Positions 2,778-27,623 of a DNA stretch of 52,610 bases are shown here, in pieces (the stretch's first letter is position 1; every line of letters begins with the position of its first letter). Position numbers and translations under genes: made by a program. Source of the DNA: Egibacteraceae bacterium (GTDB lineage Bacteria; Actinomycetota; Nitriliruptoria; Euzebyales; Egibacteraceae); the NCBI GenBank assembly GCA_035513815.1, contig DATKBU010000104.1, positions 1-52,610 on the forward strand, read 5' to 3'. Below the pieces are notes generated by a model, which searched no databases, was not told where the DNA came from, and was given only the letters and a program-made list of their open reading frames with translations.

Positions 2778-3140
2778 TCAGTAGACCAGCGGGCGCGCTC
2801 CCTCGCCGGTCGCCAGCTCGACGAACCGAGCCGACCCGGCCAGCTGGGTTCCGGCGCGGAAGTCCTCTGCGGCCAGCCCGCGGCGCGTCGCGCACGGGGA
2901 GCACACGACCACCGAGCCGGCTGCGTAGACCGCGTCGAGCAGATCGGCGATCGGGGGCGCCTCCGCCACCTCGATCTGCTCGGGGATGCCGGGTCGAGCC
3001 AGGTGCACCCCTTCGACCGCCAGGAACAGGTGGACCTCCACGCCGCTTGCCAGCGCAACCGAGGCGACATTGCAGCCGATATGGGCGCGCTCGGGATCGT
3101 CCAAGCTGTGGGTGATCTTGATCACCAGGCTCGAGGGCAT
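2778..3140 (-). CDS. DsrE/DsrF-like family protein (with VVCSPC motif)
   Basis: 120 aa. VIKITHSLDDPERAHIGCNVASVAL...VHLFLAVEGVHLA...SVVVCSPCATRRGL is typical of stand-alone DsrE-family proteins. Confidence 0.65.
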   Translation of the reverse strand: MPSSLVIKITHSLDDPERAHIGCNVASVALASGVEVHLFLAVEGVHLARPGIPEQIEVAEAPPIADLLDAVYAAGSVVVCSPCATRRGLAAEDFRAGTQLAGSARFVELATGEGARPLVY

Positions 3141-3182
3141 TGGCGGTCTCCTGGGATGGCGAGGCTGCTACCCTAACCAGCC

Positions 3183-3281
3183 ATGGACGGCGCTCCGCTC
3201 TTCTTCTTGATTCTGCTGATCGTCATGACCGCTGCCGCGGGCCTGTTCGGCCTGTACGCGCTGTACCGCCTCAAGGGCTGA
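3183..3281 (+). CDS. Possible 32-aa single-TM micro-protein
   Basis: ATG...TGA ORF not in the track: MDGAPLFFLILLIVMTAAAGLFGLYALYRLKG. Codon third positions are GC-rich like real genes, and it has a hydrophobic helix with a basic tail. No clear SD. The 3' end overlaps the pgl stop convergently. Confidence 0.3.
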   Translation: MDGAPLFFLILLIVMTAAAGLFGLYALYRLKG

Positions 3282-3972
3282 CCAGCTGCGCCGCCGACGC
3301 ATCGGCGATCACGACGGCCCGGTCGCGGCGGATCCGCGCCGCGGGGATATCCCCGCCGTTCAGGAGCATCCGCAGCGCCTCGGCCTTCCCCGCGCCTGCC
3401 ACCTGCCACACGATCGCGGCCGACCGATTGAGGGCCGGAAGCGTCAGCGTCATGCGCCGCCGGCCCTGATACGGACCGGTGACCGCGACATCGGCGCCCT
3501 CGACGGCCAGAACCGGGTCACCCGGCACAAGCGAGGCGGTGTGGCCGTCCTCGCCCAGACCGAGGTGCGCGACATCCAGCGCGACCGCATCGCCGCCGCT
3601 CAGGCTGGCCACCAGCGCCGCGTAGGCGCCGCAAGCCGCGTGCAAGTCCTGGCTGGTCACCGGCATGAGGTGGACGTTGGAGGCCGGGACGCCCGCGAGG
3701 TCGGCAAGCATGCGCAGCAGCCCGGCGTTGCGGTCGGGGTGCTCGCTGGGCGCGATGCGCTCATCGACCTGGACAAGGTGCGTCTGCGGCCACGGCAGAT
3801 CGCGGTCAGCAAGCGAGCGCATCATCGGCTCGGGCGTGCTGCCGCCGCTGAAGCCTGCGACGCAGCGACCTCGACGGCTCACCGCGCCGGTGATGAGCTC
3901 GGCGATGTGCTCCGCGGTCCGCTCTGCCAGGTCCTTGTCGTCGACGACGCGGATGCGCAGGAGCGATCTCAT
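3271..3972 (-). CDS. pgl: 6-phosphogluconolactonase
   Basis: The ATG at 3972 overlaps the zwf stop (ATGA). Motifs GFSGGSTP, LGLGEDGHTASL. Confidence 0.85.
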   Translation of the reverse strand: MRSLLRIRVVDDKDLAERTAEHIAELITGAVSRRGRCVAGFSGGSTPEPMMRSLADRDLPWPQTHLVQVDERIAPSEHPDRNAGLLRMLADLAGVPASNVHLMPVTSQDLHAACGAYAALVASLSGGDAVALDVAHLGLGEDGHTASLVPGDPVLAVEGADVAVTGPYQGRRRMTLTLPALNRSAAIVWQVAGAGKAEALRMLLNGGDIPAARIRRDRAVVIADASAAQLVSP

Positions 3973-5423
3973 GAGGCTGGGCGCCCGTCGCGCTCCGGCA
4001 GGTACCACCGGCGGGGCGCGATGAGGTCCGCTGCGCGTTCAGGCCCCCACGACCCCTGCTCGTAGGCGCCCAGCGGTGGCGGCCGGTCGATGAGGTCCTG
4101 GACCAGCTCCCATGTCCGCTCGATGCCGTCGGCGCGCGTGAACAGGGTCCGGTCGCCGATGAGCGCGTCGTGCAGGAGCCGCTCGTAGGCGTCGACCAGC
4201 TTGCCGTTCGCCGCCTCCGAGTAGGAGTAGCGCATCTGCGCCGGCTCCACGTCCATGCCGGGGCCCGGCCGCTTTGCCAGGAACGACACTGCGAGCTCGC
4301 CGCGGCCAAGGTCGAGCGTCAAATAGTCGTTCGGCTGGCGGTCCGCGATGAGCTCCCCGCCGAACATCCGTCTCGGCGGCTCGCGGAAGGCGAGGGTCAC
4401 GGTCTGGCGGCTGGCGGCGAGACGCTTGCCGGTGCGCAGATAGAACGGGACGCCCGCCCAGCGCCAGTTGTCGACCTCGACTCGCGCGGCGAGGAACGTC
4501 TCGGTGTCGGAGCCTTCCGACACGCCTTCGGCGGATGCGTAGCCCTCGTACTGGCCGCGTACCACGTGCTCGCCCCGCAGCGGCGCCATCGCTTCGAAGA
4601 CCTTGACCTTCTCGTCGGTCAGCGGCTTGGGCTCCAGCGACGCCGGGGGCTCCAGCGCGATGACGCTGAGCACCTGGAACAGGTGCGTGACCACCATGTC
4701 GCGCAGCGCGCCGGTCTGCTCGTAGAAGCCTGCGCGGCTGCCGACCCCGAGTTGCTCTGGCACGTCGATCTGCACGTGGTCGATGTGCGCCCGATTCCAT
4801 ACGGGCTCGAACATGCCGTTGGCGAAGCGCAGCGCCAGCACGTTCTGCAGTGTCTCCTTCCCCAGGAAGTGATCGATGGTGTAGATCTGCGGCGCCGCGA
4901 GCACCGAGCGCACCACCTCGTCGAGCTCGCAGAACGATGGGCGGTCCATGCCGAACGGCTTCTCGTAGACGACGCGCGACCGCTCGACGAGATCCGCTTC
5001 GCCGAGCGCCAGCGTCAGCCGCCCGAAGACGGCCGGCGGCACCGCCAGGTAGAACAGCCGCCGCACGCTTCCGGCGCCCTCATCGGCGAGTTCAGCCTCG
5101 GCGCGCTTGACCGCATCGGTCAACGGCTGCGCGTCGCCGGGCGCGACGTCATGACTCAGGTAGGACAGGCGCTCGGCGAAGGCCTGCCAATCGCTGTCGG
5201 CGGGGCGCCGGTCGAACTCCTCCACCGCCTCCCTGGCGAAGTCGCGGAACTCCTCGTCGCTGGTCTCGGTCCTGGCCACGCCCACGATCCGAAACCGCTT
5301 CGGCAGCAGTCCCTCATGGTGCAGGTGGAACAGCGCCGGGAGCAGCTTGCGGCGGGCGAGATCTCCGCGGCCGCCGAAGATGACGATGACATGGTCCTCG
5401 GCCGAGCGGGAGCGAGCCGGCAT
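3969..5423 (-). CDS. zwf: Glucose-6-phosphate 1-dehydrogenase
   Basis: The start MPARSRS... at 5423 overlaps the gnd stop (TGATG). Motifs FGGRGDLARRKL, IDHFLGKE, RVDNWRWAGVPFYLRTGKR. The 5' extension of the track ORF to 5714 overlaps gnd and was rejected. Confidence 0.93.
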   Translation of the reverse strand: MPARSRSAEDHVIVIFGGRGDLARRKLLPALFHLHHEGLLPKRFRIVGVARTETSDEEFRDFAREAVEEFDRRPADSDWQAFAERLSYLSHDVAPGDAQPLTDAVKRAEAELADEGAGSVRRLFYLAVPPAVFGRLTLALGEADLVERSRVVYEKPFGMDRPSFCELDEVVRSVLAAPQIYTIDHFLGKETLQNVLALRFANGMFEPVWNRAHIDHVQIDVPEQLGVGSRAGFYEQTGALRDMVVTHLFQVLSVIALEPPASLEPKPLTDEKVKVFEAMAPLRGEHVVRGQYEGYASAEGVSEGSDTETFLAARVEVDNWRWAGVPFYLRTGKRLAASRQTVTLAFREPPRRMFGGELIADRQPNDYLTLDLGRGELAVSFLAKRPGPGMDVEPAQMRYSYSEAANGKLVDAYERLLHDALIGDRTLFTRADGIERTWELVQDLIDRPPPLGAYEQGSWGPERAADLIAPRRWYLPERDGRPAS

Positions 5424-6334
5424 CACTCGTCGCCAACGTCGCTCGAGCGCACGGCGTGCCCGCCGAACTGCTGGCGCAAGGCCGCGAGAAGCCGGTTGGA
5501 CAGCATGTCGGGCTGGCGGGACGCGAAGCGCGAGAACAGCGACAGGGCGATCGTCGGCGCTGGGACGCCGAGGTCGATGGCGCTCTCCACCGTCCAGCGA
5601 CCCTCGCCGGAGTCCTCGACGTAGCCGGACACGGCGTCCAGCCGAGGATCCTCGGCCAGCGCGCGGCCGGCAAGATCGAGCAGCCACGAGCGGACGACGC
5701 TGCCGTGGCGCCACAGCTCCGCGATCTGAGGAAGGTCAAGATCGAACCCGCTAGCGTCCAGCAGCTGAAAGCCCTCGCCGTAGGCCTGCATCATGGCGTA
5801 CTCGATGCCGTTGTGAACCATCTTGACGAAGTGGCCCGCGCCGGTCGCTCCCACGTGCGCGTAGCCGTCCGGCGGCGCCAGCGAGGCCAGGATCGGCTCT
5901 ATCCGCGCGAAGACCTCCCGATCGGCGCCGACCATCAGGCAGTAGCCCTCCTCCAGACCCCAGATCCCACCTGATGTCCCGGCGTCGACGAGGTTGATGC
6001 CGGACTCGGCGAGTTCGCCGGCGCGGGTCATCGTGTCGGTGAACCGGGAGTTGCCCCCGTCGATGATCGTGTCGCCCGGGCTCATCAGGTCCGCGAGCGA
6101 GGCGATCGTCTCCGCGGTGATCCCGCCCGCAGGCACCATCACCCACACGACGCGAGGCGCCTCAAGTGCAGCCACGACCGCCGCGAGCGAGTCGGCAGGC
6201 TCGGCGCCGAGCTCCACCGCGCGCTGCAGCGCCCCGCGGTCGATGTCGCTTGCAACGACCTCATGCCCTGTATTCAGGAGTCGCTGCGCCATGTTCGCGC
6301 CCATCCTGCCAAGCCCGACCAGACCGATGCGCAT
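5423..6334 (-). CDS. gnd: 6-phosphogluconate dehydrogenase, decarboxylating (short ~300-aa form)
   Basis: The start MRIGLVGLGRMGANMAQRL (Rossmann GxGxxG) at 6334 follows an AGGAG SD. Motifs GGNS, GTSGG, HFVKMVHNGIEYAMMQAY. Confidence 0.88.
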   Translation of the reverse strand: MRIGLVGLGRMGANMAQRLLNTGHEVVASDIDRGALQRAVELGAEPADSLAAVVAALEAPRVVWVMVPAGGITAETIASLADLMSPGDTIIDGGNSRFTDTMTRAGELAESGINLVDAGTSGGIWGLEEGYCLMVGADREVFARIEPILASLAPPDGYAHVGATGAGHFVKMVHNGIEYAMMQAYGEGFQLLDASGFDLDLPQIAELWRHGSVVRSWLLDLAGRALAEDPRLDAVSGYVEDSGEGRWTVESAIDLGVPAPTIALSLFSRFASRQPDMLSNRLLAALRQQFGGHAVRSSDVGDE

Positions 6335-6382
6335 CGCCGCTCCTGTTCTCTCCCGGAGCGGCTGTTCTACCTCACAAATGAG

Positions 6383-6414
6383 GACCGCCCGGACCACGAA
6401 TGGTCCGGGCGGTC
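6383..6414 (-). terminator. Perfect 14-bp GC-rich hairpin (GACCGCCCGGACCA / TGGTCCGGGCGGTC, 4-nt loop)
   Basis: Read directly from the sequence. On the minus strand it is followed by CCUCAUUUGUG, a weak U-tract. It lies about 50 nt upstream of the gnd start, so it could terminate an upstream minus-strand transcript or act as an attenuator. Confidence 0.4.
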
Positions 6415-6660
6415 GGCATCCTTCACCCGTCGTCTGGTCTCGTCCCCGGTCTGGCCCGCGAAAAGCGGGGCGCCGGGTGGGCGGGCGTGACCACCTCCCG
6501 CAGACGGTCCGAGCGGGCGATGAGGATGGTTTCGCTTCTGGCTCCGTGACTCCGGTCCGGATGCCACCTGTTGACCGGTGGGCCTTAGCGCCTCATCACC
6601 TCGACGGTCACGCAAGATCTATCAGAACTCATGCTCGGACCACCTCCTCTCTGTCGTTGC
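6415..6660 (-). ncRNA. Candidate structured RNA / 5' leader of the gnd-zwf-pgl operon (family unknown)
   Basis: It lies within a 387-bp non-coding gap in an otherwise tightly packed region. Nested helices: 6633-6641 pairs with 6506-6514 (9 bp), and 6591-6600 pairs with 6516-6525 (10 bp, with one G-U that only works on the minus-strand transcript). There is an internal hairpin and a duplicated GGAGGUGGUC element. See findings. Confidence 0.3.
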
Positions 6661-6721
6661 GCCAGCATGACACCGAGTCGCTCCTGCGGCAATGAATTGC
6701 CGCGGCCGGGATACTGGTGGC

Positions 6722-7657
6722 ATGACGCGTCTGATCACTCGGCTGGCCGTGCTCACGCGACCGGTCGGATTGGTGCGGGTGAGCGGCCCTGATCGCTTGA
6801 GCTACCTGCACACGCTGCTCAGCCAGCAGGTGGAAGGGCTGACGCCTGGCGCTGCAGCCGACTTCCTGTACCTGGACGCCAAGGGCAACCCGCTCGCCGC
6901 CGGGCGCCTGCTCGTCGGCCAGGAGGATGTTCTCTTGGCGGCGCCGTCTCCTGCGACGGCCGCGGATCTCGCCGCCGCGTTGGAGAAGTTCAAGTTCCTC
7001 CTCCAGGTGGACGCGTCCGACGTGAGCGACGAGCTGACCTTCGCGAGCATCCGCGGCCCAGGCGAGATCGACGTGCCCGGCGCGCCGCCCGCGGCGATGA
7101 CGTTCGCTGCCGACGGCTCCGGCCTTCTGGTGCGAGACCGCGGAGGGGGAGTCGATCTGATCGGCAGCGGCGAATGGGTCGCCGGCCGACTCGCCGAGCT
7201 CGCACTCCCCGAGGCGTCGCGCGAGGAATGGGAGGCCTGGAGGATCCTCGCCGGCGAGCCCGCCTGGGGCGCCGAGATCGCCCCGGGGCGGCGGGCGCAG
7301 GAGCTGGGGCTGCTGCCGACCCATGTGCACCTCCGCAAAGGCTGCTATCCGGGCCAGGAGTTGATCGCGAAGATCTACAACCTCGGGCGGCCGCGTCGTG
7401 CGCTCGCTGTCGTGGAGCTGGACGGCCCGGTCGCCCCCGGCGATCAGATCGAGGTCGGCGGCAAGGCGGGGGAGGTCACCAGCGCGGCTGCGACGGCCGA
7501 GCGCTGGGTCGCTCTCGCGCTGCTGCCGGTCGGTCCGGATGGCGAGGTGGGCGACAGCGCGGTGCGCGCGAACGGGCGGACCGGCCGCATCCTGCACCGT
7601 GTCGGCGAGGGATTTCCTCAGCCCGGTGCGCCGGCCCGGCGCTCACCGGACGGCTGA
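6722..7657 (+). CDS. ygfZ: Folate-binding YgfZ/GcvT-like protein (Fe-S cluster/tRNA modification associated)
   Basis: Start MTRLITRL at 6722. VRVSGPDRLSYLHTL, and the signature KGCYPGQE near the C-terminal third. Confidence 0.82.
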   Translation: MTRLITRLAVLTRPVGLVRVSGPDRLSYLHTLLSQQVEGLTPGAAADFLYLDAKGNPLAAGRLLVGQEDVLLAAPSPATAADLAAALEKFKFLLQVDASDVSDELTFASIRGPGEIDVPGAPPAAMTFAADGSGLLVRDRGGGVDLIGSGEWVAGRLAELALPEASREEWEAWRILAGEPAWGAEIAPGRRAQELGLLPTHVHLRKGCYPGQELIAKIYNLGRPRRALAVVELDGPVAPGDQIEVGGKAGEVTSAAATAERWVALALLPVGPDGEVGDSAVRANGRTGRILHRVGEGFPQPGAPARRSPDG

Positions 7658-22258: not shown

Positions 22259-22348
22259 ACCCGCGCCGCTTCACGCCTCACACGGGTTCGCCCTGCAATT
22301 ATGTGCGCCGCTCAAGCTGTCGTCCCTTCGTGGCCGAATATTCGCAGG

Positions 22349-23689
22349 ATGGAGCACGCAACGAACACCGAAGCTGGGCCGGCATTTGGCGCCCGGCGAC
22401 GCAATGGCCCGCGCGGCGCACGGCGAGCCCAGTCGAGGAGCGCTCGCGTCGCGCTGGTGGCTGTGCTTGCGCTGGCCCCCGCCGCCGTGACGATTCCCGA
22501 CGCGGGCGCCGATCACGGCGCTCAGGTCTATGGCACGGTCACTGCGCCCGATGGGACGGCAGTGGGCAGCGTGCGCGTCGGGACCGAGGCAGGCCCCACT
22601 GACACCAGTACGGAGACCTCCTCGGCCGGGGGCTACCGGCTCCATCCGCTGGCTCCCGGGTCGTATGCGATCGAGTTCGGCTCGCCGCTCGCGCAGTACG
22701 AGACGGCGACCGTCACCGTCTCGCTGGCGCAGATGGAGTCCAAGCTCCTCGATGTCGCCCTTCAGCCAGCCGCGCTGCCACTGAGCGTCGTCTCGGGCGC
22801 GACCCGTATCATGACCGCGGTGCAGGCGTCCCAGGCCGGGTTCCCGCAGGGGGCCGACACCGTGGTGATCGCTGCGGGCGGCACCTTCCCGGATGCGCTG
22901 GCGGCGGCGCCGCTCGCCGCGCAGAATGACGCCCCCCTCCTGCTCGTCGGCGATCGCAGCGGTCCCGAGGTCCTGGCTGAGGTCGGGCGCCTGGGCGCAG
23001 GCAAGGCCTTCATCGTGGGCGCCAGCGGCGCGGTCAGCGTGGTCGTCCAGTCCGAGCTAGAGCGCGCCGGCGTGGAAGTCGAGAGGATCGCCGGGGAGAA
23101 CCGGTTCGACACCGCCGCCCTGATCGCGCGCGAGGTCGGCGCGCCGCCCAGTGGGGAGGTGGCGGTGGCCTTCGGCGGCAACTTCCCTGACGCGCTCGCG
23201 ATGGCGCCGGTGGCTGCCGCGAACGGCATCCCGATCGTCCTCGCGGATACCGACTTGCCCAAGGACACGGCAGCCGCCCTGGCCGCGCTCGGCGCCACCC
23301 GCACGCTCGTCCTGGGGGGGCAGGCAGTGGTGAGCGACGCAGTCGTGCGCCAGCTTCCTGCGCCGCGGCGGATCTCTGGTCCGGAGCGCTATGCGACGGG
23401 CGTGGCGGTTGCCGAGGAGGGACTGCGCCGCGGGGGATCGCTCAGCACGGTCTACGTGGCGACGGGAGGGAACTTCCCCGACGCGCTGGCGGCCGGGCCG
23501 TTTGCCGCGCTGACGGCCAGCCCGGTGCTGCTCGTCGACGGCAGCGACGCCCGGGCGGCCGGCGTCGCCTACCAGTTCCTGGTCGACCATTTCGCCGAGA
23601 TCGATCGAATCGTAGTGCTCGGCGGTGACGGCGCGGTGTCCAGTCCGGTCCGCTCGAGGGTTCGCCGACCGGCGATGGCGCTGGAGTAG
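22349..23689 (+). CDS. Secreted cell-wall-binding (CWB2) repeat protein with N-terminal carboxypeptidase-regulatory-like beta domain
   Basis: Signal peptide ARVALVAVLALAPAAV. GTVTAPDGTAVGSVRV...GGYRLHPLAPGSYAIEF. Three CWB2 repeats (RIAGENRFDTAALIA...GGNFPDALAMAPVAAANGIPIVLA; RISGPERYATGVAVA...GGNFPDALAAGPFAALTASPVLLV). Confidence 0.72.
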   Translation: MEHATNTEAGPAFGARRRNGPRGARRAQSRSARVALVAVLALAPAAVTIPDAGADHGAQVYGTVTAPDGTAVGSVRVGTEAGPTDTSTETSSAGGYRLHPLAPGSYAIEFGSPLAQYETATVTVSLAQMESKLLDVALQPAALPLSVVSGATRIMTAVQASQAGFPQGADTVVIAAGGTFPDALAAAPLAAQNDAPLLLVGDRSGPEVLAEVGRLGAGKAFIVGASGAVSVVVQSELERAGVEVERIAGENRFDTAALIAREVGAPPSGEVAVAFGGNFPDALAMAPVAAANGIPIVLADTDLPKDTAAALAALGATRTLVLGGQAVVSDAVVRQLPAPRRISGPERYATGVAVAEEGLRRGGSLSTVYVATGGNFPDALAAGPFAALTASPVLLVDGSDARAAGVAYQFLVDHFAEIDRIVVLGGDGAVSSPVRSRVRRPAMALE

Positions 23690-23692
23690 CCG

Positions 23693-24223
23693 ATGGCCGA
23701 GTACGGGAACGTGAGTGCTCCGCTGCTGGCGGCGCTGTTCGCGTGGGCGGCGTTGGTCAAGGCCCGTCGCCCGGCGGCGACGGCAGGCAGCTTCTCTGCC
23801 CTTGGCCTGCCCGGCGCCCGCGGCCTGGCGTTCGCTGTCCCAGCTGCGGAGCTGATCATCGCCGCCGCCCTGCTGGTCCGCCCGACGCTCGGCGCAGCCA
23901 CGGCGCTGCTGGCGCTGGCGGCGTTCAGCGCGGTGCTCGGCTCGGCGCTGCGGCGCGGTGCGGCGGTGACGTGCGGGTGCTTCGGCGCCGCGGGCGCGAA
24001 CGCGGTGTCCAGCGGAGATCTGCTGCGCAACGCAGCGCTGGCGCTGCTCGCCGCGCCCGCCCTCGCGGTCTGGAAGCTTGCCGTGCCGACCCTTCCCGCC
24101 ATGGTTGGCGTCACAGGGGCCGCATCCGCAGCTGCTGTGGCGCTCGCGCTGCTGCGGCTGCGCCGGGAGACGGGTCGGCTGTGGGACAACGCGTTGGAAC
24201 CGGGTCCCGAGGGGGGGGTATGA
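23693..24223 (+). CDS. MauE/DoxX-family redox-associated membrane protein
   Basis: 176 aa with four to five TM helices. FAWAALVKARRP... and the CGCFG motif are typical of MauE. Confidence 0.75.
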   Translation: MAEYGNVSAPLLAALFAWAALVKARRPAATAGSFSALGLPGARGLAFAVPAAELIIAAALLVRPTLGAATALLALAAFSAVLGSALRRGAAVTCGCFGAAGANAVSSGDLLRNAALALLAAPALAVWKLAVPTLPAMVGVTGAASAAAVALALLRLRRETGRLWDNALEPGPEGGV

Positions 24224-24705
24224 GCGGCGGCGCGTGGATCGCCTCGTACGTGATCCTGTGGGTCGCGGTTGCCATGCTGTCGCTGGCGGTGATCGTCCTG
24301 CTGCGCCAGATCGGCGTCCTCCATGCGCGGATCCGCCCGATGGGAGTTCATTTCGCCAACGAGGGCCCGACGCGTGACGCGCCCGCGCCGTTGCCGCAGC
24401 ACTTCGACTTCGGCTCGCGGCGACTCACCCTGGTGACCTTCACCTCCGAGGGGTGCCGGATCTGCCAAGACCTCCTGCCGTCGATCCGCGCGCTGGAGCG
24501 GCAGTACGAGGACCTGGGCATCGACGTCGTATCGCTGGGTCCGGGCACGCAGGAAGTGTTCAACGCCTACAGCGTGCGCTCGACCCCCTATGTCGTGGGA
24601 GTCGACTCCGCTGGAGTCGTGCGAGGCGGCGGCGTCGCGAACACCCTTGAGCAGATCGAAGTGCTGGTGGAGTCGTGTCTTGAAGGAAGCTCGCAAGATG
24701 GCTGA
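24220..24705 (+). CDS. MauD-like membrane-anchored thioredoxin-fold protein (CRIC)
   Basis: ATGA overlap with the mauE-like gene. N-terminal TM followed by LLRQIGVLHARIRPMG (very MauD-like), then TFTSEGCRICQDLLP. Confidence 0.7.
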   Translation: MSGGAWIASYVILWVAVAMLSLAVIVLLRQIGVLHARIRPMGVHFANEGPTRDAPAPLPQHFDFGSRRLTLVTFTSEGCRICQDLLPSIRALERQYEDLGIDVVSLGPGTQEVFNAYSVRSTPYVVGVDSAGVVRGGGVANTLEQIEVLVESCLEGSSQDG

Positions 24706-26074
24706 CAGATCGATGGAGGCAACCGGGGCGACGGTGGACCAAGTCGCCGAGCGTCTCGGGAGGTGGGCGGCCGGGCGCACGACGCGCCGCAGCTTCCTGG
24801 GCCGGCTGGGACGACTGGCAGTCCTCGTCGCGGGCGGCTCGACCATGGCGACACTGCTGGCCGAGTCCGCGTCTGCGCGGGTCTGCGGACAGTCCGGGGT
24901 CTCCCCGAAGTGCGACACGTTCGACTGCGACGCCACATGGGGCTGGTGCTGGTACGCCTCCGGATGCTGCGCCGGCGGGCTGCTGAAGAAGATCTGCGAT
25001 TGCTGCGCCCCGAACACGCCCAACCCGGTCGGCTACTGCCCCAGCGGCACTCGGGTGCTGTGCATCCTGGAAAGCTGCGGGGCCGATCCGCGGCTGCAGA
25101 CTCGCGAGATCGTGCGGACCGACAGCGACGATCCGATCGACATCGCGGTTCGCATCAGCCAGCACCGGTTCCCGGGCCGATCGCCGATCGCGGTGCTCGG
25201 CGACGCCGAATCCGCCTTCCACGCCGCGGTCGCGGCGTCGCTGGGCCGCGTATCGGGCGGTCCGGTGCTGCTCACGGGCCGCGGCGCGCTGTCAGGGCCG
25301 GTGGCGGAAGAGCTGCGCCGGCTACGGGTGGAGTTCGTCAAGGTGGCGGGCTCGCAGTTGAGCGAGCACATCGACGAACAGCTGGCCCAGATGCGCATTT
25401 CGGTCGAGCGAGTCGGCGAGAGCGCCGACGCTGGGGACTTCTCAGCTGAAGTCGCGGAATGGAGCAGGGCGATGACCGGCGCCAGGACGGCCATCGTGGT
25501 GCTGCCAGGGACCGCGGGCGCCGGTGCGCTTGCCAGCGCGGCGGCGTGCGCAAACGCGGCGGCCCGGCCCCTGCTGATCGGCGGCGGCGAGCGCGTGATG
25601 CAGGCGCTGTCGACACCGCGGCGGGTCACGCGCACCTGGGTGCTGGGGGACAGCGAGAGCGACGCCGCTGCCTTCTTCGGAGGCCGGCCGCTGATCGAGG
25701 GCAACGCGGCGGCCCTTGCGCGCCTGCTCGCCGACACCGCGCGGGCCATGGGCGCCCCCCGCGAGGCGGTGGGGCTCGCGCCGCTGAAGTCCGGCATGGT
25801 CGCGGCGGCCATGGCCGCGCTGCCGGCGCCGCTGCTGTACCACGCTCCCGGCTCGATGGATGGCGCATTCGACTGGCTGCTGCGCAATCGTGACGGCCTG
25901 ACGGCGGCCTATCAAGGCGGCGGACCCGATGCCTTCGACACGCAGGCGTACTACGAGCTTCAGTCGGTCATCAACGAGTACGAAGTCCATCTGCTGCGCG
26001 GGGTCGCCGGTCAGGGCTTGCCGGTGATCCCCCAGCCGCATTCTGAGCGCCCAATCGGCAGAGCGAGGCGCTGA
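24698..26074 (+). CDS. Tat-exported MauA-leader-like, 12-Cys/Trp-rich module fused to three divergent CWB2-like repeats
   Basis: GAAGGAAG SD, then an ATG at 24698 overlapping the mauD-like stop by 8 nt. Leader VDQVAERLGRWAAGRTTRRSFLGRLG resembles the long Tat leader of methylamine dehydrogenase light chains. Residues 61-128 carry 12 Cys (ICDCC...CPSGT). The rest resembles CWB2 repeats. Confidence 0.65.
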   Translation: MADRSMEATGATVDQVAERLGRWAAGRTTRRSFLGRLGRLAVLVAGGSTMATLLAESASARVCGQSGVSPKCDTFDCDATWGWCWYASGCCAGGLLKKICDCCAPNTPNPVGYCPSGTRVLCILESCGADPRLQTREIVRTDSDDPIDIAVRISQHRFPGRSPIAVLGDAESAFHAAVAASLGRVSGGPVLLTGRGALSGPVAEELRRLRVEFVKVAGSQLSEHIDEQLAQMRISVERVGESADAGDFSAEVAEWSRAMTGARTAIVVLPGTAGAGALASAAACANAAARPLLIGGGERVMQALSTPRRVTRTWVLGDSESDAAAFFGGRPLIEGNAAALARLLADTARAMGAPREAVGLAPLKSGMVAAAMAALPAPLLYHAPGSMDGAFDWLLRNRDGLTAAYQGGGPDAFDTQAYYELQSVINEYEVHLLRGVAGQGLPVIPQPHSERPIGRARR

Positions 26075-26161
26075 GCCATGCTTGCGCTGGGGCTGACCGC
26101 CGCGGCGCTGGCCGCCGTTCGAACGCTGTGGTCGCCCTGAGGCCTGTCGATCACGGAGACC

Positions 26162-26719
26162 GTGACGCCTCCCGTGCGGGGGCGGGACAAGCTGATCGTG
26201 GCGGGCCTCATGCTCGCCGCCGCTGCGACGGCCGCGGGGCTGGCTGGATTCGCCGCTGGCGCGGCCTGGGAGATCGCCGGCCTGCCGCCGCTCGGCGCGC
26301 CCGGGTCTGCGGCCGTCGTCCTGATGGCGCTCGCCGCCGACGCCGCCTACAGCAGGCTCTCCAGACCGCGGCCTTGGTCTGTGGGGCGGCAGGTGCCCAG
26401 GGAATGGTCCAGGCTGTTCTCGGCTCGGACCGTCGCGGTCCTGTATGGCGCCAGGCTCGGGGTCGGCCCGCTGACGATCCTTCCGACCTGGCTGTGGTGG
26501 GCGGCCACGGCAGTCGGGGCTTCCGCCGGAGTGTGGCACTCGGTCGCGGTCGCGGTCGCGTTCGCGGCTGTCCGGGTGCTGGTGATGGTCGGCCTGGCGC
26601 AGCACATCGCGTCAGCAGCCGCACCTCGAATGGCGCGCATCATGGCCTCCGAGCCCCGCGCTCGCGCCAGTTGCGCCGCCGTCGGGACGCTGGTGTGCGC
26701 GGTCATGCTGATCTGGTGA
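26162..26719 (+). CDS. Hypothetical integral membrane protein
   Basis: 185 aa with a GTG start and four predicted TM helices. The upstream in-frame 20-codon ORF (26078-26140) ends at a TGA; see findings. Confidence 0.5.
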   Translation: MTPPVRGRDKLIVAGLMLAAAATAAGLAGFAAGAAWEIAGLPPLGAPGSAAVVLMALAADAAYSRLSRPRPWSVGRQVPREWSRLFSARTVAVLYGARLGVGPLTILPTWLWWAATAVGASAGVWHSVAVAVAFAAVRVLVMVGLAQHIASAAAPRMARIMASEPRARASCAAVGTLVCAVMLIW

Positions 26720-26729
26720 TCATGGCCGG

Positions 26730-27623
26730 ATGAGCGCTGCAGACGCCGAAGCCGCGGCGGACGCTCTCGTGGCCCGCGTCCAGGCGCGCCCGGGCGCCGT
26801 GCTCGTGCTCGGCGGCATCGACAGCGGCAAGACGACGCTGGCGACCCGCCTGCTCGGAGCGCTCGTCGACGCCGGTCTCGTGCCGGCCTACATCGATACC
26901 GACGTGGGCCAATCGACTACGGGGCCGCCGGCCACGGTCGGCTGGCGCCGTGTGGTCAGCCGCGCCGACCTGACGGACCTCTTCGAGGCCGACGGGCTGT
27001 ACTTCGTCGGCGACGTCACTCCTGCGACGCGCCTGCTGGCGACGCTGACCGGCGCCGCGCGGGCGCTGGAGGCATCGCGCGCGGTGTCCGGCGCGGCGGT
27101 GATCGATACGTCCGGCTTCGTGTCGGGAGTCACCGCCCAGACGCTGAAGTTTCACAAGATCGAGATCCTGCGACCGGATCACGTGGTGGCCCTTCAGCGC
27201 GGCGAGGAGCTCGAGCCGCTGCTCGCGGCGGTGCGCCGCTTCGGCTCGATTGAGACCACTCGCGTCCAGATCCATCCCGGGGTCGTGTCGAAAACCGCTG
27301 AGCAGCGCGCTGAGCGACGCTCCCGGCTGCTGCGGCGCTACTTCGCGCCGCCGCTGACCCGCTACCGGGTGCGCGCCGCCGCGTTCATGCCGACCCTGCC
27401 GCCGACACTTGACGCCTCCCGGCTTCACGGGCTGCTTGCGGGACTGGACGACGAGCAGGGGAACTGCATCGGCATCGGCGTTGTCGAGCATCGCGAGGCA
27501 GGGCTGCGCCTTGCCGCACGGACAGGCGTGATCCCCAGCGCGCTGCGCCTCGGCGCCGTCGCAGTCGATGATGACTGGACAACTCGAAGCATCGACCTTC
27601 GCTCGCTGCTCGGCAGCGGATAG
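26730..27623 (+). CDS. Clp1/Grc3-family P-loop protein (putative polynucleotide 5'-hydroxyl kinase)
   Basis: VLVLGGIDSGKTTLATRLL (Walker A), YIDTDVGQSTTGPPATVGW, YFVGDVTP, VIDTSGFVSG, and the C-terminal RAERRSRLLRRYF follow the Clp1 P-loop domain pattern. Confidence 0.68.
   Translation: MSAADAEAAADALVARVQARPGAVLVLGGIDSGKTTLATRLLGALVDAGLVPAYIDTDVGQSTTGPPATVGWRRVVSRADLTDLFEADGLYFVGDVTPATRLLATLTGAARALEASRAVSGAAVIDTSGFVSGVTAQTLKFHKIEILRPDHVVALQRGEELEPLLAAVRRFGSIETTRVQIHPGVVSKTAEQRAERRSRLLRRYFAPPLTRYRVRAAAFMPTLPPTLDASRLHGLLAGLDDEQGNCIGIGVVEHREAGLRLAARTGVIPSALRLGAVAVDDDWTTRSIDLRSLLGSG

Follow-up and report, generated by a model that had tools for sequence, protein, structure and literature searches.

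A gene at positions 24698–26074 of a 52,610-nt stretch of DNA from an Egibacteraceae bacterium (contig DATKBU010000104.1, assembly GCA_035513815.1; the whole stretch is called the window here) encodes a long twin-arginine translocation (Tat) leader followed by a small domain with 12 cysteines, a combination reminiscent of MauA, the light chain of methylamine dehydrogenase (MADH). We consider that what this part of the gene encodes is probably the leader and first domain of a protein that is secreted, bound to the cell wall and devoid of the tryptophan tryptophylquinone (TTQ) cofactor, and the explanation that we favour, with fair confidence, is that the domain is knotted by disulfides, displayed on the surface and matured by an oxidative-folding system of the MauF, MauE and MauD type. 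The strongest evidence for the connection with MauA is the operon in which the gene lies, formed by mauE, a mauD-like gene, the target gene and a mauF-like gene, the last of which has an in-frame UGA codon and is a candidate founder of a new selenoprotein family.

The sequence MADRSMEATGATVDQVAERLGRWAAGRTTRRSFLGRLGRLAVLVAGGSTMATLLAESASA followed by RVCGQSGVSPKCDTFDCDATWGWCWYASGCCAGGLLKKICDCCAPNTPNPVGYCPSGTRVLCILESCGADP is the translation of positions 24698–25090 (forward strand), MADRSMEATGATVDQVAERLGRWAAGRTTRRSFLGRLGRLAVLVAGGSTMATLLAESASA being the 60-residue leader. The first-pass annotation had taken the segment for a free-standing module ending at 25081, and this did not hold: the open reading frame (ORF) continues from the ATG at 24698 up to 26074, with a TGA stop codon at 26072–26074, the product has 458 aa, and the cysteine-rich segment is its N-terminal domain. 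The ATG overlaps by 8 nt the end of the upstream mauD-like gene, whose stop codon occupies 24703–24705. From its N- to its C-terminus, the protein comprises the Tat leader, the domain with 12 cysteines, three CWB2 cell-wall-binding repeats and a conserved tail, distributed as follows.

24698–24877, forward strand: MauA-type Tat leader, residues 1–60, with a conserved n-region, TRRSFL, a hydrophobic core and ASA.
24878–25096, forward strand: 12-Cys, Trp-rich domain, residues 61–133, the best-conserved part, predicted to form a three-stranded sheet.
25097–26074, forward strand: three divergent CWB2 repeats and the conserved C-terminal tail, assigned with the family profile against the PDB, AlphaFold2 and Foldseek.

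The features expected of a Tat leader were all found, namely the TRRSFL twin-arginine motif, the hydrophobic core and a cleavage-type site between ASA and R, and the 12 cysteines were located exactly where they had been listed (C63, 72, 77, 84, 90, 91, 100, 102, 103, 114, 122 and 127).

The C-terminal 320 aa correspond to three tandem CWB2 units forming one pseudo-trimeric domain, as indicated concordantly by profile, model and fold comparison. The family profile matched Cwp6 (5j72, E 1.6e-16), Cwp8 (5j6q, E 3.8e-11) and the high-molecular-weight subunit of SlpA (E 1e-8) in the PDB, and Foldseek with the AlphaFold2 model returned CWB2 proteins only (Cwp6, E 1e-14; Cwp8, E 6e-13; SlpH, TM-score ~0.6). 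PF04122 was matched by just 4 of 71 members when these were searched individually. The C-terminal tail (L.GVAGQGLPVI.QP..ERPIG.AR, ~25990–26071, residues 433–457) is strongly conserved, with G438, G440, P442, P447 and G454 invariant, and many orthologues extend beyond it with DGA..WGS..PP.YWT.

An initial protein search recovered just 18 fragments of the family. Relatives in other genomes were found by a pattern scan over one genome per species, which gave 112 loci of which 80 were retained, and by a profile search that gave at least 399 proteins. The hosts of the loci are metagenome-assembled genomes (MAGs) of Acidimicrobiia/Acidimicrobiales, plus a few Nitriliruptoria, and the closest relatives, with 80, 78 and 76% identity, come from MAGs assigned to Euzebyales, unclassified Actinomycetota and Egibacteraceae, respectively. 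Among the 120 matches listed, the proteins have 435–506 aa, mostly ~470, and all of them are annotated as 'hypothetical' and carry no Pfam domains.

Within the protein, the cysteine domain is the best-conserved part, with 74–95% identity between orthologues compared to 30–40% for the CWB2 part, and follows the pattern RVCGQSG..C..C..WGWCWY..CC..LKKICDCC..GYCP.G..V.C..ESC..DPR. The 12 cysteines, W81 and W85 were conserved in 100% of 72 orthologues and W83 in 96%; in an alignment of 121 sequences the cysteines were invariant or nearly so, C122 being kept in at least 90%. As cysteines, W81 and W85 are conserved across the orthologues, the 12-Cys pattern is not due to chance. Most members carry 2–4 extra residues between C77 and W81. 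A second difference concerns positions 25022–25054 of the window (residues 109–119), which encode PNPVGY..GTRV compared to PNVHGY..GTNV in 120 of 121 other sequences: the clade of the window (the window itself and loci L003 and L044) has P110-V111 and R or Q at 119, whereas the other members have V-H and N in 120 of 121 cases. The near-universal His and Asn of the domain are thus dispensable in Nitriliruptoria.

A full-length AlphaFold2 model built with the 121 sequences (mean predicted local distance difference test score, pLDDT, of 89) predicts the cysteine domain as a three-stranded sheet, with strands at residues 80–87 (TWGWCWYA), 97–104 (KKICDCCA) and 119–126 (RVLCILES). When only the 138 aa at the N-terminus were modelled, from an alignment of 11 sequences, the pLDDT was 54, and Foldseek found no match for this model in the PDB. 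The mature domain had no match in Pfam or NCBIfam either, and its profile searched against 1.84 billion representatives gave 51 matches that included no MauA and no further architecture: nearly all had the architecture described above, the rest being a stand-alone relative named P0179 and repeat or low-complexity proteins (the ankyrin-like P0176 and the tandem-repeat P0168). The libraries and papers searched described neither the family nor a MauF with selenocysteine, nor any other passenger that carries a MauA-type leader. The cysteine-rich domain defines an undescribed family of at least 399 proteins.

The relation to MauA was analysed at the levels of leader and mature part. TIGR02659, the model for the MADH small subunit, was the sole NCBIfam match of the protein (E 1.6e-5, 24.9 bits, with a cut-off of 196.85), was matched by 53 of 71 family members, and the best sequence match in the PDB was the light-chain precursor of Paracoccus versutus MADH (3c75_L, E 9e-5). 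Most of this signal comes from the leader, which alone gave 21.3 bits to TIGR02659 compared to 14.3 bits to the generic TAT-signal model, while the mature domain alone had no TIGR02659 match. The n-region of the leader is conserved as D14..E18..R22-W23..A25..R27, followed by T-R30-R31-S-F-L, and AlphaFold2 predicts a helix in it at residues 10–26. Profile-profile comparison by hhalign with nine MauA, AauA and related light chains taken from plasmid records gave the following results.

Leader against leader: probability 97.5, E 7.5e-12 (shuffle control not run).
The 21-residue stretch leading up to the RR motif: probability 95, E 3.5e-8, reached in 0 of 200 column shuffles.
Mature part against mature part: probability 5, P 0.008, reached in 3 of 200 shuffles.

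Thus, in the alignment with MauA the leader match is secure and the mature match is weak. The parallel with MauA leaders drawn in the first-pass annotation stood up, even for the n-region alone, and on these comparisons the similarity is real and extends beyond generic Tat features. The likeness proposed for the mature parts, ICDCC..CPSGT against ICDCSGG..CPPGT of MauA, was recovered as the best local alignment but is marginal, so that similarity between the mature domains is only suggestive. Similarly, the cysteines equal in number those of a MADH light chain, but only about 5–6 of them can be placed on MauA positions. The domain was also described correctly as about half a light chain (~70 vs. 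~130 aa) in which the two TTQ tryptophans cannot be aligned: W57 of MauA falls on E125 or I123, and the segment with W108 does not exist in a domain of ~70 aa. With TTQ tryptophans and C-terminal half missing, no Pfam match and no mauB, mauG or mauJ in the window or within 8 kb on each side in 80 loci, the view that this is not a methylamine dehydrogenase was borne out. The domain fails the tests for a light chain (profile, TTQ tryptophans, mauB, mauG) and should therefore not be filed as MauA.

It could be argued that the resemblance to MauA reflects generic Tat features and a Cys-rich composition, without any relationship to the mau system, and the marginal similarity of the mature domain, the absence of MauA from the search of 1.84 billion representatives and the concentration of 21 of the 25 bits to TIGR02659 in the leader would fit such a view. 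We regard it as extremely unlikely, given that the n-region before the RR motif matches by itself, that mauE, mauD-like and mauF-like genes flank the target gene in mau order, and that all of this recurs in P0179, a second family of passengers.

A separate observation on light chains concerns a plasmid of Thermomicrobium roseum (NC_011961.1, 474850–489131; locus L084), which encodes a divergent 150-aa 'methylamine dehydrogenase light chain' with both TTQ Trp positions kept, accompanied by a 597-aa MauE/DoxX fusion protein, several hypothetical genes and a second, unannotated light-chain-like match. This appears to be a further MauA system of non-canonical type, here in a lineage of monoderm type.

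The two genes immediately upstream of the target gene are the following.

23693–24223, forward strand: mauE (PF07291, E 2.8e-21), with C94-G95-C96-F-G at ~23972–23980.
24220–24705, forward strand: mauD-like gene for a membrane-anchored thioredoxin-fold protein of 161 aa with C79-R-I-C82 (TIGR02661, E 4.7e-21).

The ATG of the mauD-like gene overlaps the stop codon of mauE (ATGA). Its product scored 75 bits against TIGR02661, under the cut-off of 188.6, and had 31% identity to Paracoccus denitrificans MauD (tblastn, E 1.5e-19). The four genes of the cassette (mauE, mauD-like, target and mauF-like) lie on one strand, and synteny was followed in 82 loci, comprising the 80 genome loci and 2 metagenome contigs. 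The mauD-like gene was present in 81 of the 82, the mauF-like gene in 75 and mauE in 71, with constant order and strand, and the outer flanks of the cassette were not conserved across the loci. The CGC(FG) motif of mauE is kept in 71 loci, and the CxxC and LLRQIGVLH motifs of the mauD-like protein in 81. The order mauE, mauD, client matches that of the P. denitrificans cluster mauFBEDACJGMN, and tblastn with P. denitrificans MauB, MauG, MauJ, MauM and MauN gave no matches in the 52.6-kb window or in the 80 loci of ~16 kb. The maturation of the domain is plausibly like that of MauA up to, but excluding, the TTQ steps, because the MauA leader and the MauF, MauE and MauD helpers are used. With respect to the helpers themselves, MauE has been described as a DsbB-like thiol oxidase far more widespread than MauA, which complements an Escherichia coli dsbB mutant and has an essential CXC motif followed by F-G (bioRxiv 10.64898/2026.03.05.709764).

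The conservation of the cassette also bears on the possibility that the 12 cysteines bind a metal or an Fe-S cluster inserted in the cytoplasm, the Mau-like genes being envelope redox housekeeping that happens to lie nearby. Tat substrates are typically cofactor proteins, the 12 invariant cysteines are accompanied by conserved Asp, Glu and His, and MauE is described as a generalist. Nevertheless, the four genes stay together and in order in about 75–81 of 82 loci from two classes, with flanks that are not conserved, and do so as well in the distant contig L100 described below. In addition, the leader is MauA-specific, and MauA, which is a Tat substrate too, has six disulfides without any cofactor from the cytoplasm. 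The searches matched no ferredoxin, HiPIP or Rieske family, and the spacings CxC and CC do not resemble those of motifs that bind clusters, all of which makes metal binding very unlikely.

The fourth gene of the cassette was analysed together with the region immediately downstream of its UGA codon.

26078–26719, forward strand: mauF-like gene of 213 codons for a polytopic membrane protein; codon 21 is an in-frame TGA (26138–26140) in the context LWSP[UGA]GLS.
26148–26162, forward strand: hairpin A, just 3' of the UGA.
26167–26183, forward strand: hairpin B, SECIS-like (selenocysteine insertion sequence), with invariant G and U in its apical loop C-G-U-G-C.

The frame starts at the ATG at 26078, 4 nt past the TGA stop of the target gene, and reads MLALGLTAAALAAVRTLWSP-TGA(26138–26140)-GLSITETVTPPVRG, continuing to 26719; as called, the ORF has 185 aa, from 26162 to 26719, so that its N-terminal part was missed. 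Neither the 185-aa ORF nor MauF and the MauF-like proteins matched Pfam or NCBIfam, where there is no curated MauF model. The mauF-like profile aligned to a profile of six MauF sequences by hhalign with probability 92.8 (E 4e-7) without the N-terminal extension and with probability 97.2 (E 4e-11, 162 columns) when it was included. By tblastn, P. denitrificans MauF matched 13 loci with 30–34% identity and E values down to 4.7e-7, and the alignment runs through the stop codon, TLWSP, stop and GLS being aligned to the invariant TWSPCGYSS of MauF. In 75 of 76 sequences (the window and 75 loci), the TGA stands where MauF has Cys79, and another codon was never found there. The peptide sequence is conserved on both sides of it, and the entropy by codon position upstream of the TGA (1.00/0.65/1.38) is as in coding sequence. 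For the neighbouring genes TGA is an ordinary stop.

In RNAalifold and covariation analyses of the hairpin region, hairpin B was 93% paired in 57 sequences, with three compensatory pairs and with G37 and U38 of the loop invariant. The pair changes included one position with CG in 48, GC in 5 and UG in 4 sequences, none of them unpaired, and another with UG in 27, UA in 22, CG in 6 and GC in 2. Covariation was 0.229 compared to 0.097 for shuffled alignments, 0 of 500 of which reached the observed value, and controls with slid partners gave at most 0.10. The PSVRG peptide appears to be partly dictated by hairpin B, the Pro and Gly codons pairing with each other and the Ser and Arg codons likewise. 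A UGA with such a hairpin behind it is what is expected of a selenocysteine codon and its SECIS in bacteria, from which we infer selenocysteine insertion, and the mauF-like gene would then represent a candidate new selenoprotein family with the motif WSPUG. MauF is absent from two reviews of prokaryotic selenoproteins.

The genes for selenocysteine synthesis and insertion were searched in the window and the loci. No tRNA-Sec was detected there, and the E. coli SelA and SelD queries matched nothing. A SelB-like match in locus L023 was rejected, as it corresponds to EF-Tu. For a different order of Acidimicrobiia, a preprint reports selenocysteine machinery (10.64898/2026.04.03.716425).

The relation of MauF to the leader was assessed in the plasmid records. 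With an E value below 1e-3, tblastn with MauF matched only the 15 records with canonical mauA and not the divergent AauA-type records; in those inspected, mauD was located just upstream of the light chain. Thus, the n-region motif tracks mauD more than mauF.

An independent replicate of the pattern formed by leader, cassette and TGA was provided by P0179, encoded in contig L100 (positions 2896–5342; Logan SRR33230266). P0179 is a stand-alone protein of 127 aa with 14 cysteines and was the weakest significant match of the domain profile. Its leader aligned to MauA leaders with probability 95.7 (E 9e-9), its domain to the family domain with probability 98 (E 1.9e-13), and its mature part gave the same local alignment to MauA in the ICDCC..CPSGT region (P 0.0011); it has no WGW motif. 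The order in the contig is mauE (with an additional small ORF of no assigned identity), mauD-like gene (VLRQIGILH..CSLC), P0179 gene and mauF-like gene, and in the last of these LWSP-TGA-GIS is found again, followed by the same two hairpins although the encoded peptide differs. With L100, there are three passengers with a common leader and accessory genes: the TTQ light chains, the putative knot fused to CWB2 repeats and the putative stand-alone knot. The neighbours of the cassette in L100 include ECF (extracytoplasmic function) sigma factors and a CAP-domain protein.

According to the model that we favour, the precursor would be exported by Tat, and the n-region helix, common to MauA and AauA, would single it out as a client for the Mau helper proteins and hold it at the MauD/MauE (and MauF-like) machinery until cleavage. 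Outside the membrane, the MauD-like CxxC protein may oxidise and/or isomerise the 12 cysteines, and would in turn be re-oxidised by MauE through its DsbB-like CGC motif, the electrons passing probably to quinone, as proposed in preprint 10.64898/2026.03.05.709764. The MauF-like protein would act as a third redox component with a single selenocysteine or cysteine centre, either as a reductant/isomerase arm or through a covalent holding step. We infer this order of redox steps. The product would be a knot with six disulfides, preferred here to another modification of the cysteines, displayed on the wall and held by the CWB2 repeats. The domain would act there most plausibly as a binding module, and a glycan is suggested as the ligand by an exposed W-x-W-x-W strand and the hevein-like N-terminal half of the domain; glycan binding is our most concrete guess in this respect.

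This guess can be refined, tentatively, into the proposal that the N-terminal half of the domain is hevein-like (CBM18-type) and that the protein, anchored to the wall, serves as a lectin or adhesin towards glycans that contain N-acetylglucosamine (peptidoglycan or chitin), which would be a refinement of the model above and not an alternative to the maturation that it describes. The segment CGQSGVSPKC-DTFD-C-DATWGWC has the cysteine spacing of hevein (C-x8-C-x4-C-x6-C) with WGWC in register, the hevein domain of a rice chitinase was the second PDB match (E 2.2), and the family profile aligned with that of 11 hevein domains with probability 53.7 (P 1.3e-4) over 29 gap-free columns, a result reached in 0 of 200 shuffles. 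The single strand predicted for TWGWCWYA would in addition place the three tryptophans on one face. On the other hand, the candidate was picked post hoc from a non-significant match, the Pfam model Chitin_bind_1 (PF00187) had no match even at E 10, Cys18 of hevein is replaced by Asp or Gly, most members have 2–4 residues inserted before W81, and P0179 is devoid of WGW. Thus, a hevein-like half appears possible but rather doubtful.

The same tryptophans could be interpreted differently, as part of a new Cys/Trp-derived cofactor or cross-link (a quinone similar to cysteine tryptophylquinone, or a Cys-Trp thioether) formed in WGWCWY/CC, in which case the protein would be a wall-bound redox protein and the selenocysteine-containing MauF-like protein would take part in making the cofactor. 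W81, W83 and W85 lie beside an invariant cysteine and there are two CC pairs; leader and accessory genes descend from, or are common to, a quinoprotein system; the very strong conservation of the domain relative to the CWB2 part suggests more than a scaffold, and demanding redox chemistry is what the presence of a selenoprotein in the operon would point to. However, neither a MauG-like di-haem protein nor a flavoprotein similar to LodB, GoxB or QhpG nor the radical S-adenosylmethionine (SAM) enzyme QhpD was among the conserved neighbours (MauG being the only one searched directly), clustering of the 8-kb flanks recovered nothing beyond the cassette genes apart from a DUF4214-like protein, conservation does not extend to the TTQ Trp positions (that of W108 lying in the missing half), and the stand-alone relative P0179 does without the WGW motif. 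A cofactor of this kind is thus unlikely. The more specific version, in which WGWCWY/CC would be converted outside the cell, without MauG, to a new redox cofactor or cross-link by the selenocysteine-containing MauF-like protein with MauE and MauD, is likewise improbable; if true, it would mean a wall-anchored redox protein in Acidimicrobiia and a new selenium-dependent branch of quinoprotein-type maturation. A reading of the domain as QhpC-like was given low weight. No search gave a sequence match to QhpC.

Several observations weigh against the disulfide-knot model as well. Tat export is typical of proteins that acquire their cofactor in the cytoplasm. The mature domain has no significant similarity to any family of known function (P 0.008 for MauA, probability 54 for hevein), and His111 and Asn119, found in 120 of 121 other sequences, are missing from the clade of the window itself. 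With respect to selenocysteine, the thermodynamic z-scores of the hairpins are modest (-1.2 to -1.6), Rfam at the gathering threshold gave no match in the whole window, and neither the window nor the loci yielded selA, selB, selC or selD; a 2026 preprint states that Rfam covers bacterial SECIS elements poorly. Finally, MauE has been argued to be a generalist (bioRxiv 10.64898/2026.03.05.709764), so that linkage alone does not amount to dedication.

What is new in the system is that a maturation module of the Mau type serves another client and includes a component that is probably a selenoprotein. Among the accessory proteins, MauE is the only one with a role proposed so far. The cassette separates the leader and MauF, MauE and MauD from the TTQ-specific parts (MauB, MauG and the TTQ tryptophans), which argues for a portable, leader-addressed system of export and oxidative folding for Tat-exported cysteine knots, and it suggests a role in recognition for the n-region that is conserved in the MauA leader. 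The replacement of the single conserved cysteine of MauF by a UGA codon points to this residue as redox-active and thus offers a direct handle on the function of MauF. In practical terms, standard gene callers split or truncate the members of this candidate selenoprotein family, and the wall protein is common in uncultured Acidimicrobiia.

Outside the cassette, a second wall protein is encoded immediately upstream in the window.

22301–23689, forward strand: secreted protein with a CarboxypepD_reg-like domain (E 7.5e-8) and three CWB2 repeats (CW_binding_2, E 2.3e-49).

This gene stops 3 nt before mauE and the linkage is found in 3 of 82 loci, all in the clade of the window, where it is probably co-transcribed with the cassette. 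A different protein of ~230 aa, secreted and with repeats Y..LLGR.AD..G..YW..L that are DUF4214-like by eye, is encoded upstream of mauE in 42 of 80 loci (for example, at 5883–6803 of locus L013) and is absent from the window. Downstream, a Clp1-type P-loop gene (26730–27623; PF16575, E 1.1e-35) begins 11 nt past the mauF-like gene and is not conserved beside the cassette elsewhere. In the cassette-bearing metagenomic contig L002 (10882–14661), genes of a contractile injection system (CIS_tube, gp25, PAAR and base_V) are located ~3 kb downstream, probably by coincidence.

When compared to known systems, the closest similarities are with the MauA/AauA light chains (TIGR02659, PF02975), with which the target protein shares the long Tat leader with the same n-region (fD..vE..sR..A..tSRRsF), the 12 cysteines of the mature part with an I/LCDC..CPxGT segment followed by a strand, and the location of the gene directly after mauE and mauD with a mauF relative in the operon. 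In contrast, the domain has ~70 aa instead of ~130, with the whole C-terminal half and both TTQ tryptophans missing, mauB, mauG, amicyanin and mauJ are not encoded nearby, and the protein is fused to three CWB2 repeats in monoderm Actinomycetota. The mauF-like protein shares with MauF of Paracoccus and Methylobacterium the 162-column alignment that includes WSPCG, RxQVP and LYG.xLG..LT, as well as an operon with mauE and mauD, but it is shorter (213 vs. 277 aa, about the first 60 residues of MauF being missing), the position of the invariant Cys79 is encoded by UGA with a hairpin downstream, and its gene follows that of the substrate, whereas mauF is the first of its cluster.

The MauE/MauD-like pair resembles the DsbB/DsbA and VKOR/DsbA pairs, in which a membrane oxidase with a short Cys motif (here CGCFG) works with a thioredoxin-fold CxxC partner on the outer face. 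It differs from them in being tied to a single Cys-rich client gene and a membrane protein that probably contains selenocysteine, and in that the client is predicted to be exported by Tat rather than by the general secretory (Sec) pathway. The nearest published hint comes from decRiPPter, which found mauE, with or without mauD, beside genes for products with at least 8 cysteines in Streptomyces without the rest of the mau cluster (PMC7794033). Those products are proposed to be short precursors of RiPPs (peptides made by the ribosome and modified after translation); the client described here is instead a wall protein of 458 aa (127 aa for that of L100), begins with a Tat leader of the MauA type and has a mauF-like partner.

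With QhpC, the gamma subunit of quinohemoprotein amine dehydrogenase and itself a small redox-protein subunit, the domain has in common the size, a Cys-rich composition and possibly Cys/Trp chemistry, but the genes conserved beside the cassette include neither the radical SAM enzyme QhpD nor the flavoprotein QhpG. The likeness to hevein and CBM18 modules consists in the cysteine spacing, with WGWC in register, and the size of a small disulfide knot, whereas Cys18 and the C-terminal CxxxC of hevein are missing and six more cysteines and a second half have been added. Finally, the Cwp family of Clostridioides difficile, including the high-molecular-weight SlpA subunit, likewise combines a triple CWB2 unit with a separate 'functional' domain, but in the present proteins this domain is a putative 12-Cys knot at the N-terminus, predicted to be exported by Tat, and the hosts are Acidimicrobiia and Nitriliruptoria.

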